This document shows, one piece after another, positions 8,428-9,373 of a stretch of DNA of 10,114 bases. The stretch's first letter is position 1. Every line of letters starts with the position of its first letter. Below the pieces are notes generated by a model, which was given only the letters and a program-made list of their open reading frames with translations, made no database searches and had not been told where the DNA came from. Where the stretch lies: IMG/VR virus record IMGVR_UViG_2609460125_000008. One strand, 5' to 3'. A program made the translations under genes and the position numbers. Source of the DNA: a virus (Duplodnaviria > Heunggongvirae > Uroviricota > Caudoviricetes).

Positions 8428-8745
8428 GGTGACAGCCCCTATGTTGAATTCAAAGAACTCACCACATGGGACGCCAATCACAGAGGTGGTGAGACGTACA
8501 GGGTTGGCGTAACCGGTCAACATAGAACCCGGCGCATCTTGCGATGTCCCTGCACGCCCCACCATAATTTGGGCGTAGCAATGCTCATGACACGAAAAAA
8601 CCGCATGAGCGCGGTTATGCTCTATATTGAATTTCAGGACGCCAATCCCGGCCCCCGCTTTATAAGGTGCAGAGACAGTGTAACGTCCCGAAATTGCAGA
8701 ATCAATATATTGTGCAGATATAACGATTTTGTTATGTTTTGCTGT

Positions 8746-9075
8746 ATGAACTACACTATCGAATACTACAGTGAAGAGGTCCGACTGGAGGTCGATCAGC
8801 TTCCATTGAGTATGCGTGCCAGATACCAGCATCTTGTTGAACGCATGAAGGTATACGGCAGCAATCTCGGAGAACCTCACACCAGCGCCTTTGGTGACGG
8901 GCTTTTCGAACTCAGAATTAAAGGCAACGATGGGATCGCGCGTGTTTTTTACTGCACTCTGACAGGGAAACGCATCATCATGCTGCATAGTTTTGTAAAG
9001 AAAGCGCAGAAAACACCGCCAGCCGAACGCAAGAAAGCTGAAACCAGAATGAAGGAGGTTAAGCATGACTGGTAA
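8746..9075 (+). CDS. Type II toxin, Gp49/HigB-like (RelE/ParE superfamily)
   Basis: 109 aa from the ATG at 8746: MNYTIEYYSEEVRLEVDQLPLSMRARYQHLVERMKVYGSNLGEPHTSAFGDGLFELRIKGNDGIARVFYCTLTGKRIIMLHSFVKKAQKTPPAERKKA matches the Gp49-like (DUF891) toxin pattern. The 3' end overlaps the antitoxin start by 11 nt. Confidence 0.8.
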   Translation: MNYTIEYYSEEVRLEVDQLPLSMRARYQHLVERMKVYGSNLGEPHTSAFGDGLFELRIKGNDGIARVFYCTLTGKRIIMLHSFVKKAQKTPPAERKKAETRMKEVKHDW

Positions 9076-9373
9076 ACGCACTCTCCCCACCATGACACAC
9101 GACGAAATGGCAGCCAAATGGATGGAAGACCCGGCTTTTAAAGCAGAATACGACGCTATCGCTGACGAATTCGCACTGCTTGATGAAATGCTGGCAGCAC
9201 GCAAAGAAGCTGGCTTAACTCAGGCTGAAGTTGCCGAGCGAATGGGAACAAAAGCGACCGCGATCACCAGAATGGAAAGTAATCTCGCATCAGGTATCAG
9301 CGGCCCATCATTTGCCACACTAAAAAAATTCGCCCGCGCTACTGGAAAAAAACTCCAGATCCGCTTCGTTTAA
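9065..9373 (+). CDS. HTH (XRE-family) antitoxin, HigA-like
   Basis: 102 aa. AAGGAGG Shine-Dalgarno 7 nt upstream. HTH motif LTQAEVAERMGTKATAITRMESN. Toxin-first gene order is typical of HigBA-type modules. Confidence 0.8.
   Translation: MTGKRTLPTMTHDEMAAKWMEDPAFKAEYDAIADEFALLDEMLAARKEAGLTQAEVAERMGTKATAITRMESNLASGISGPSFATLKKFARATGKKLQIRFV

Follow-up and report, generated by a model that had tools for sequence, protein, structure and literature searches.

We analysed a 10,114-nt stretch of viral DNA (IMG/VR record IMGVR_UViG_2609460125_000008, Caudoviricetes; hereafter the window), with attention to a toxin–antitoxin (TA) pair at 8746–9373 and to the 318 bp that separate it from the divergently oriented rha gene. 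An earlier note, made from the sequence alone, had described a Gp49/HigB-like toxin and a helix-turn-helix (HTH) antitoxin transcribed away from rha across a structured intergenic region. Every feature that it listed is indeed there, position for position. It missed an in-frame TAG codon in rha and two curated small RNA (sRNA) genes that lie on the minus strand within the 318 bp. With these included, we read the locus as two known mobile modules placed back to back, a HigBA-type TA cassette on the plus strand and an IsrK/C4 RNA leader of rha on the minus strand (estimated probability about 0.82). Both modules belong to known families and are ordinary in kind.

The 318-bp region (8428–8745) is clearly structured. 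It holds nine exact inverted repeats of at least 7 nt against 1.9 in dinucleotide shuffles (P = 0.003) and four of at least 8 nt against 0.56 (P = 0.017), and the minus-strand RNA 8670–8415 folds more stably than its shuffles (z = –2.9). The description as intergenic does not hold, given the two sRNA genes inside. About 240 of the 318 bp make up the IsrK–C4 leader of rha, and the promoter-only DNA shared by the divergent units comes to about 75 bp (8671–8745). The –35 hexamers of the two predicted divergent promoters (8700–8705 on the minus strand and 8710–8715 on the plus strand) are 4 bp apart. A comparable back-to-back promoter layout occurs at a second, independent junction, found in E. 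coli RMDEC465 and in the phages PhiR5_2 and POCJ13.

The toxin and antitoxin genes

The toxin gene (8746–9075, plus strand) encodes a 109-aa protein of the Gp49 class of the RelE/ParE superfamily. It matches Pfam Gp49 (PF05973, E = 3.2e-25, 88.4 bits against a cut-off of 23.9) and, in the PDB, HigB 6af3_A (E = 6.5e-5, or 2.8e-8 with a profile). The antitoxin gene (9065–9373, plus strand) encodes 102 aa with a C-terminal XRE-type HTH domain (Pfam HTH_3, residues 44–98, E = 3.4e-11, 43.5 bits against a cut-off of 23), and its best solved relative is HigA 6af3_B (E = 1e-3). The best solved relatives of the two proteins are thus the two halves of one complex, S. pneumoniae HigB–HigA (6AF3). RefSeq annotates the pair as a RelE/ParE toxin and an HTH protein. 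The open reading frames (ORFs) overlap by 11 nt in toxin-first order, as had been noted. The strong Shine–Dalgarno (SD) sequence claimed for the antitoxin is AAGGAGG at 9052–9058, within the toxin 3′ end and 6 nt before the antitoxin ATG. The antitoxin gene is found downstream of the toxin gene in 26 related loci.

An AlphaFold (AF2) model of the toxin, built on 58 homologues, has a mean predicted local distance difference test (pLDDT) score of 93.8. The model reaches TM-scores of 0.72–0.76 to S. pneumoniae HigB (6AF3/6AF4) and to free and ribosome-bound M. tuberculosis HigB1 (7NBU/7AWK), followed in the ranking by RelE and V. cholerae HigB2. Sequence identity to the solved toxins is 19–26%. 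In a profile alignment, toxin residues E55, R57, R66, F83, K85, Q88 and K89 correspond to E66, R68, R77, F93, K95, Q98 and K99 of M. tuberculosis HigB-TAC, the proposed catalytic pocket of that toxin, and most of these seven positions are invariant among the 58 homologues. The RelE/ParE-fold homology on which the earlier note had staked its identification is therefore present by Pfam, PDB and AF2 alike, and its naming of the pair as a Gp49/HigB-like toxin with an HTH antitoxin stands. Variable alignment columns fall at codon positions one, two and three in the numbers 16/5/62 for the toxin and 13/10/70 for the antitoxin; with this strong third-position bias, both genes evolve as real coding sequences.

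By its family and predicted fold, the toxin would be a RelE-fold mRNA endonuclease, most likely acting on the ribosome, and the XRE-HTH antitoxin would neutralise this toxin. Four independent losses of the toxin beside an intact antitoxin are consistent with a toxic product: the start codon is changed from ATG to ATA in PhiR5_2 and in a Pantoea sp., and a stop interrupts codon 8 of the toxin in a Sodalis sp. and in an Acerihabitans sp. It should be kept in mind that this TA subfamily is so far known from its sequence and predicted fold.

The cassette shares with the Gp49-class HigB systems of S. pneumoniae (6AF3/6AF4), M. tuberculosis (HigB-TAC, 7NBU/7AWK), V. cholerae (HigB2) and A. baumannii (HigBA) the toxin-first order, the overlapping HTH antitoxin and the Gp49 domain. 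It also shares the conserved E-R-R-F-K-Q-K catalytic set and a RelE fold with a long C-terminal helix (residues 92–108 in the model), a helix noted for the class (PMC9098466). It differs from the solved HigBs in being carried as a "moron" (an accessory mobile cassette) antisense to the early operon of lambdoid and Stx phages. Tad–Ata of plasmid pAMI2 and gp49–gp48 of N15 fall into the same class, the N15 pair as far as it is represented by the citations in PMC5906591. An NCBIfam search gave no family-level name beyond weak matches to TIGR02683 and RstR. PADLOC found no known defence system, returning a partial NsnC match for the toxin and generic HTH matches. The NsnC match covers the toxin core (residues 49–99; window 8746–9072), which aligns with the C-terminal 50 residues of this candidate defence protein (E = 4.9e-9), a hint that defence systems reuse Gp49-like domains.

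Two long ORFs found mechanically across the toxin gene lack gene support. One, of 276 aa (8374–9204, minus strand), joins a toxin-gene antisense frame to the RNA leader, and the other, of 224 aa (8401–9075, plus strand), is an upstream extension of the toxin frame. Downstream of the cassette, an inverted-repeat scan found a GC-rich hairpin, GCGCCGTCA-TTC-TGGCGGCGC (9381–9401), between the convergent higA-like gene and ninE. Neither strand shows a T-run there. The TA transcript may have its 3′ end here; that the hairpin acts as a terminator would be a guess.

Probable operator, predicted promoter and start of the toxin gene

Just upstream of the toxin ATG, the earlier note had pointed to a dyad ATAAC-N6-GTTAT as a possible operator. 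Both arms are present (ATAAC at 8720–8724, GTTAT at 8731–8735), giving the candidate palindrome ATAACGATTTTGTTAT (8720–8735), which keeps its position and travels with the cassette. We gathered 62 loci with toxin relatives from a one-genome-per-species collection and kept for analysis the 39 in which the toxin start could be located; these span Enterobacterales, Betaproteobacteria, Nitrospira, Chloroflexi and Alphaproteobacteria. In 33 of the 39 loci we found a palindrome no more than 45 nt upstream of the toxin start, mostly between –30 and –8, and the window dyad occupies –26 to –11. The dyad is retained where the flanks are unrelated or wholly different, and at its position POCJ13 and PhiR5_2 have a perfect 16-bp palindrome, ATAACAAATTTGTTAT. 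The sequence of the palindrome varies by lineage: TAACA-N4-TGTTA in Betaproteobacteria, TATAGC-N6-GCTATA in Nitrospira, and elsewhere ATATC-N8-GATAT, ATTGCA-N4-TGCAAT and more. A palindrome that changes in sequence between lineages at a fixed place is as expected for an operator that co-evolves with its HTH protein. By this comparison, ATAAC-N6-GTTAT is probably the operator of the TA operon, in agreement with the earlier suggestion.

In every case homology between cassettes sets in at position 8718 of the window, 28 bp ahead of the toxin ATG, and any conserved TA promoter must therefore lie within those 28 bp. The promoter that we predict consists of a –35 element TTGTGC (8710–8715), a 17-nt spacer, a TG at 8730–8731 and a –10 element TATGTT (8733–8738), all on the plus strand. 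Its –10 element ends 7 nt before the toxin ATG at 8746, and the dyad lies in the spacer and overlaps the –10. The arrangement recurs in the relatives: 28 of 39 loci have a TAnnnT hexamer whose first base is at –13 to –11, with 20 of these at –13 and about one at any other position, and in many lineages TTGnnn is found 17–18 nt upstream of it. As had been remarked, the toxin has no obvious SD; no SD-like motif occurs in the 20 nt before its ATG. Among the relatives such a motif precedes 2 of 39 toxin starts, as against 23 of 26 antitoxin starts. Taken together, the position of the –10 hexamer and the missing SD suggest a toxin mRNA with no leader or almost none, which would explain why its gene lacks an SD. 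Shortened toxins of 76–87 aa are annotated in TUM9812 (4548–4778 of the compared stretch), POCJ13 (5095–5358) and PhiR5_2 (5128–5358), where the conserved 109-aa frame begins 66–99 nt upstream, probably because the true start has no SD.

If this is correct, the antitoxin, probably as a dimer, would bind the palindrome within the promoter and repress its own operon. The toxin would be translated inefficiently from its leaderless mRNA and the antitoxin strongly from its SD, and the two together would maintain an excess of antitoxin. A precedent exists in paaR2, the first gene of a prophage TA operon in E. coli O157, whose leaderless mRNA has an experimentally mapped start (PMC8630535). The paaR2–paaA2–parE2 system of cryptic prophage CP-933P resembles the present one in being a prophage TA operon with a leaderless first gene, and by analogy it shows that such an arrangement can work in E. 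coli. It differs in that the leaderless gene encodes a cI-like regulator and not the toxin, in that the toxin is of ParE type, and in its location at a cI/cro-like switch. In the literature searched we found no description of a leaderless start with an operator in the promoter spacer for Gp49/HigB-class toxins.

Several observations count against a leaderless toxin. The window –35 (TTGTGC) is poor and the TA promoter stays below the threshold of a consensus scan, about 10 of the 39 loci have no –10 at the expected spacing, and the 39 loci are related and not phylogenetically independent. Moreover, many homologues begin with GTG, a weak leaderless start in E. coli, and this fits leaderless translation poorly. 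Alternatively, the toxin might be translated by SD-independent initiation on a longer mRNA from an upstream promoter such as TTGCGA-18-CATAAT (8539–8568, plus strand), the conserved TAnnnT then being just the right arm or flank of the operator. This is the sole match of the consensus promoter scan of 7800–9700, a scan that missed both promoters proposed here, and in Enterobacterales the putative –10 does overlap a palindrome arm. However, the match is at chance level (one found, 2.2 expected), falls within the C4 gene and is missing from the other settings in which the cassette occurs, and cassette homology begins just 28 bp ahead of the ATG. The palindrome does not include TAnnnT in Betaproteobacteria, Devosia and other groups, where TTGnnn is found 17–18 nt upstream of that hexamer. 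We thus regard a longer mRNA as a minority possibility, though one with some weight, and favour the leaderless start.

The IsrK–C4 leader of rha

Two sRNA genes fill most of the space between the TA promoter and rha. The first, on the minus strand at 8670–8594, is an IsrK-type gene equivalent to P4 seqA and P1 a1b1 (Rfam RF01394, 58.1 bits against a gathering threshold of 50, full length 1–77). Its predicted promoter has a –35 TTGATT (8705–8700), a 17-nt spacer and a –10 TACACT (8682–8677), with +1 at 8670; it aligns with TTGACA/TATATT upstream of the IsrK 5′ end in Salmonella Gifsy-1 and is conserved in eight modules. The gene ends in the terminator AACCGCGCUCAUGCGGUU followed by U6 (8616–8593), which is also the sole terminator-like site found in 7800–9700 by an independent scan. 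The earlier note had read this stretch as a possible terminator or attenuator ahead of rha, and it was essentially right: AACCGC (8599–8604), GCGGTT (8611–8616) and the minus-strand T-run are present and form the terminator of the Rfam-matched IsrK. The overlapping hairpin that it described, GCTCATG (8583–8589) with CATGAGC (8604–8610), is present as well. On the minus-strand RNA this GCUCAUG/CAUGAGC hairpin (8583–8610) pairs the terminator loop with the sequence after the U-run. In other modules the sequence after the U-run pairs with a stretch 5′ of the terminator (CGAUAUGA/UCAUAUCG in RMDEC465, CGACA/UGUCG in Gifsy-1).

The second gene, at 8569–8482 on the minus strand, encodes a C4-type antisense RNA, the equivalent of P4 CI RNA and Salmonella STnc1160 (Rfam RF01695, 74.8 bits against a gathering threshold of 45, E = 2e-14, full length 1–87 of 87). 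As the family consensus does, its closing stem finishes in CACCACC; by analogy with the family, the RNA would be released from the leader transcript by RNase P. The antisense loops a′ (CUAUGUUGA, 8525–8517) and b′ (ACGCCAA, 8510–8504) are exactly complementary, over 9 nt and 7 nt, to target sites on the rha leader: a2 (UCAACAUAG, 8447–8439), which adjoins the rha SD GGGG (8438–8435) near the rha ATG at 8427, and b2 (UUGGCGU, 8477–8471). A further pair of target sites, b1 (8645–8639) and a1 (8630–8622), lies inside IsrK. A third inverted repeat given in the earlier note, CTCACCAC (8458–8465) with GTGGTGAG (8486–8493), is an exact 8-nt match and proves to be a conserved, covarying helix. On the minus strand it pairs the 3′ strand of the C4 closing stem, CUCACCAC (8493–8486), with a downstream partner copy, GUGGUGAG (8465–8458). 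Going by these pairings, it is an alternative helix of the unprocessed read-through transcript.

The pairings are upheld by covariation across the eight modules. Pairing of C4 with a2/b2 and of the 8458/8486 dyad, taken together, extends to 93.5% of cells (78% in shuffles), with double changes in 15 of 24 pairs. For C4 with a1/b1 the values are 95.9% and 13 of 16 pairs. For the dyad helix itself 98.4% of cells are paired, with compensatory changes in 3 of 8 pairs. In the a2/b2 set and the a1/b1 set alike, none of 500 shuffles scored as high, and 27–50% of cells were paired when the partners were slid, the range for the a2/b2 set being 30–47%. Loop/target specificity is particular to each module, in the manner of the heteroimmunity types of P1 and P7. 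The E. coli O121 prophage has three tandem IsrK–C4–cargo modules with three C4 loop/target specificities (4183–5683 of the compared stretch), and TUM9812 has two tandem IsrK–C4 modules.

The cargo gene of the window module is rha (8427–7864, minus strand), an antirepressor-like gene of the Rha family (Pfam Phage_pRha PF09669, E = 2.3e-25, 89.4 bits) that also matches PHROG anti-repressor families; an antirepressor-type gene thus follows C4, as in other systems of this kind. Here it is a pseudogene. Codon 18 (8376–8374) reads TAG where relatives have CAG, and to judge from this amber codon the gene is dead in the window. The Rha domain is otherwise intact, with 167 of 169 residues identical to an intact homologue from E. 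coli O121 that has CAG at codon 18. Every one of the five public contigs encoding the identical toxin has the TAG; rha is accordingly an inherited pseudogene and not the product of a sequencing error.

Upstream of rha and fused to it in frame is a leader ORF resembling Gifsy-1 orf45 (8565–8374, minus strand), which starts with AUG at 8565 and is stopped by the amber codon. Its AUG lies at nt 106 from the IsrK +1, as compared with nt 107 for the first AUG of orf45. We at first read a larger Ash–Rha fusion ORF in this place from the Pfam Ash match, the open frame and the RefSeq coding sequences (CDSs), and dropped it on the Rfam, frame, codon-position and P4 evidence. One could still hold that the 318 bp are the protein-coding N-terminal "Ash" domain of such a fusion (286–333 aa in PGAP annotation) and that the dyads are incidental. 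The minus-strand translation does match Pfam PF10554 (E = 6e-11) and PHROG families (E ~1e-47), RefSeq annotates the protein in E. coli O121 and TUM9812, and Gifsy-1 orf45, which overlaps part of C4, is translated (PMC4825925). Moreover, all six E. coli modules of the class keep the frame open through IsrK–C4 and in register with their cargo gene. This last point is unexplained if the leader is purely RNA, and with it two others tell against our reading: the in-frame fusion of leader ORF and rha departs from Gifsy-1, and the c4-a1b1 match scores a weak 17.8 bits, below threshold.

However, the variable columns of the leader are spread evenly over the codon positions (40/39/42), whereas toxin and antitoxin concentrate theirs at the third position and rha has 55/44/89. 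The frame differs between phages and is broken by indels of 1, 2 and 4 nt in RMDEC465, PhiR5_2 and Gifsy-1, and the positions that vary covary as RNA pairs. Upstream of 8565 the window offers no start codon, and the amber lies downstream. In P4 the Pfam Ash match falls on an obsolete ORF, "cI", lying over the CI/C4 RNA (8168–8584; C4 74.9 bits) and not on epsilon (PF25738). We consider an Ash protein distinctly improbable here. The Ash-like frame is probably not a protein by these sequence criteria, and what the Pfam Ash model describes seems to be the IsrK/C4 RNA gene in translation. Accordingly placed across the same RNAs are RefSeq "ash family" and long "Rha family" CDSs, which cross the IsrK and C4 genes in TUM9812 (3582–4583 of the compared stretch) and in O121 (3565–5737). 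An IsrK and C4 pair precedes every ash/Rha CDS in the E. coli relatives and is also found in Gifsy-1 and P4. P4 was not among the matches listed in a tblastn search of the Ash-like translation against phages; its link to the window comes through Rfam and Pfam.

Three systems offer models for how the leader would act. One is isrK–orf45(STnc1160)–anrP of Gifsy-1 (Hershko-Shalev et al. 2016, PMC4825925), which aligns directly with the window at the DNA level from the promoter onward. It agrees with the window in the order and spacing of promoter, 77-nt IsrK with terminator, leader AUG, C4-like RNA and cargo start (at about nt 241–244) and in having an antirepressor-type cargo. Our mapping of Gifsy-1 reproduces the published 45-codon ORF and its AUGA overlap. 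The window differs in having an in-frame fusion in place of the AUGA-coupled leader ORF, a variant layout common to the six E. coli modules. It differs also in its amber pseudogene cargo and in lying before the replication genes and not after Q. AnrP was considered as a homologue of the window Rha and rejected, the two cargo proteins showing no similarity. In Gifsy-1, read-through of the IsrK terminator is the control point, and read-through transcripts are translationally silent until the short IsrK acts in trans (PMC4825925).

The immI region of P1/P7 (c4–icd–ant), as far as PMC8198154 relays it, likewise produces C4 from the leader of the transcript that C4 controls, with a1/b1 upstream, a2/b2 at the ribosome-binding site (RBS) and an antirepressor as cargo. 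There C4 blocks translation at a2/b2 and hence antirepressor expression (Citron & Schuster 1990, cited in that source). Specificity differs between P1 and P7 by covarying loop/target sequences, as it does between our modules. The window, for its part, has no icd homologue, has an IsrK-type terminator between a1/b1 and C4, and belongs to a lambdoid element. In P4 the same Rfam families stand in the same order (seqA–CI RNA–seqC; isrK 60.8 bits). There CI RNA pairs with seqA, a structural homologue of IsrK, and with seqC to cause premature termination (PMC4825925). The P4 RNA stops transcription ahead of the replication genes and acts as primary immunity factor, whereas the window RNA precedes an antirepressor-like gene.

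By analogy with these systems, transcription from the isrK promoter would mostly stop at the IsrK terminator. A read-through transcript would carry the C4-type RNA, whose two loops would pair with a1/b1 in IsrK and with a2/b2 at the rha RBS. The pairing would control translation of the leader ORF and of rha, and hence of the antirepressor.

Genomic context and meaning

The window is a remnant of a lambdoid prophage. Its minus-strand order is ninE, rha, a 77-aa ORF, O-like, DnaC-like and DnaB-like genes, Q, four tRNA genes and lysis genes, and it is bracketed by insertion sequences (IS), a fragment of IS600 on the left (79–374) and IS911 on the right (~9649–10,114; orfA ATG at 9721, end at 10,022). 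IS911 begins within about 60 bp of the ninE start, where relatives have ninB. The four tRNA genes (3030–3340, minus strand) are Gly-TCC, Thr-TGT, Arg-TCT and Met-CAT; many phages of the Stx and lambdoid types likewise have tRNA genes between Q and the lysis genes. The succession ninE–TA–rha–replication genes is in itself a mosaic. No cI/cro immunity region occurs within the window, where IS911 comes after ninE.

In such a setting the whole locus, TA pair included, might be decayed and inert. The rha amber, the cuts by IS600 and IS911, the missing immunity region and the frequency of toxin knock-outs in relatives all lean that way. Against it, both TA ORFs are intact, as are the catalytic residues and the operator candidate. 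The antitoxin is 100% and the toxin 97% identical to the RMDEC465 proteins, and the 1.7-kb block 7864–9600 is 99.4–99.9% identical across five independent public contigs. General decay of the cassette is, in our judgement, unlikely, and we keep to the reading of a TA cassette that is intact beside a dead rha.

The cassette is rare in E. coli, occurring in 31 of 5426 complete genomes, and is carried by the Stx phages POCJ13, 75/02 Stx and PhiR5_2. Its place in these three is the nin region, with the replication genes upstream of it and ant/ninB/rusA/Q downstream, and it is antisense to the early-right operon; cro, cII and cI are several kb away. RMDEC465 has it between ninE and an antirepressor gene, and TUM9812 between a DUF4222 gene and rha. 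This nin-region placement, together with the varied flanks, marks the cassette as a mobile moron and not as an immunity module.

The earlier note had speculated otherwise. It placed the module where an immunity region might be expected and suggested that the HTH protein could be both an antitoxin and a repressor-like regulator. Spelled out, the module would replace the phage immunity region and the HTH protein would also be a cI-like repressor of the divergent rha/early operon. Some features lend themselves to that idea. The protein weakly resembles phage repressors (NCBIfam RstR, 26.8 bits against a cut-off of 80) and matches PHROG "transcriptional regulator" families, and just 15 bp separate the operator candidate from the –35 element of the divergent isrK/rha promoter. 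The genomic context contradicts it. In intact phages that carry the cassette the position is the nin region and cI, cro and cII lie elsewhere, which leaves a repressor-like role in phage regulation unsupported. The cassette occurs with the same promoter–operator layout in non-phage chromosomal contexts of many phyla. A lambdoid immunity region has cI divergent from cro and repeated operators, whereas here there is a single palindrome and the HTH protein is encoded second in a TA operon; by Pfam, this protein lacks an S24 peptidase or other cI C-terminal domain. The immunity-repressor idea is thus largely refuted and, in our estimate, extremely improbable.

A looser connection between the two modules may be imagined. 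The centre of the operator candidate lies some 57 bp upstream of the IsrK start site, and the antitoxin could also tune transcription of the IsrK–C4–antirepressor leader, so that the modules would be functionally coupled. We hold this to be improbable; were it true, stress-induced loss of antitoxin would feed into the prophage antirepressor switch. More likely than such coupling is that Gp49-class HigB toxins are translated family-wide from leaderless mRNAs with the operator in the promoter spacer.

These findings leave the range of known kinds of system unaltered. What is worth keeping is the proposed family-wide promoter–operator–leaderless layout of Gp49-class HigB operons and the placement of Ash annotations over IsrK/C4 genes. 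The latter amounts to an annotation correction, the "Ash domain" of RefSeq Rha and ash proteins being the IsrK–C4 RNA leader. The covarying loop/target sets of C4 point to several specificities, which stand in tandem in some prophages. Overall, if the leaderless layout is true, it would provide a simple family-wide account of antitoxin excess in toxin-first HigBA operons.

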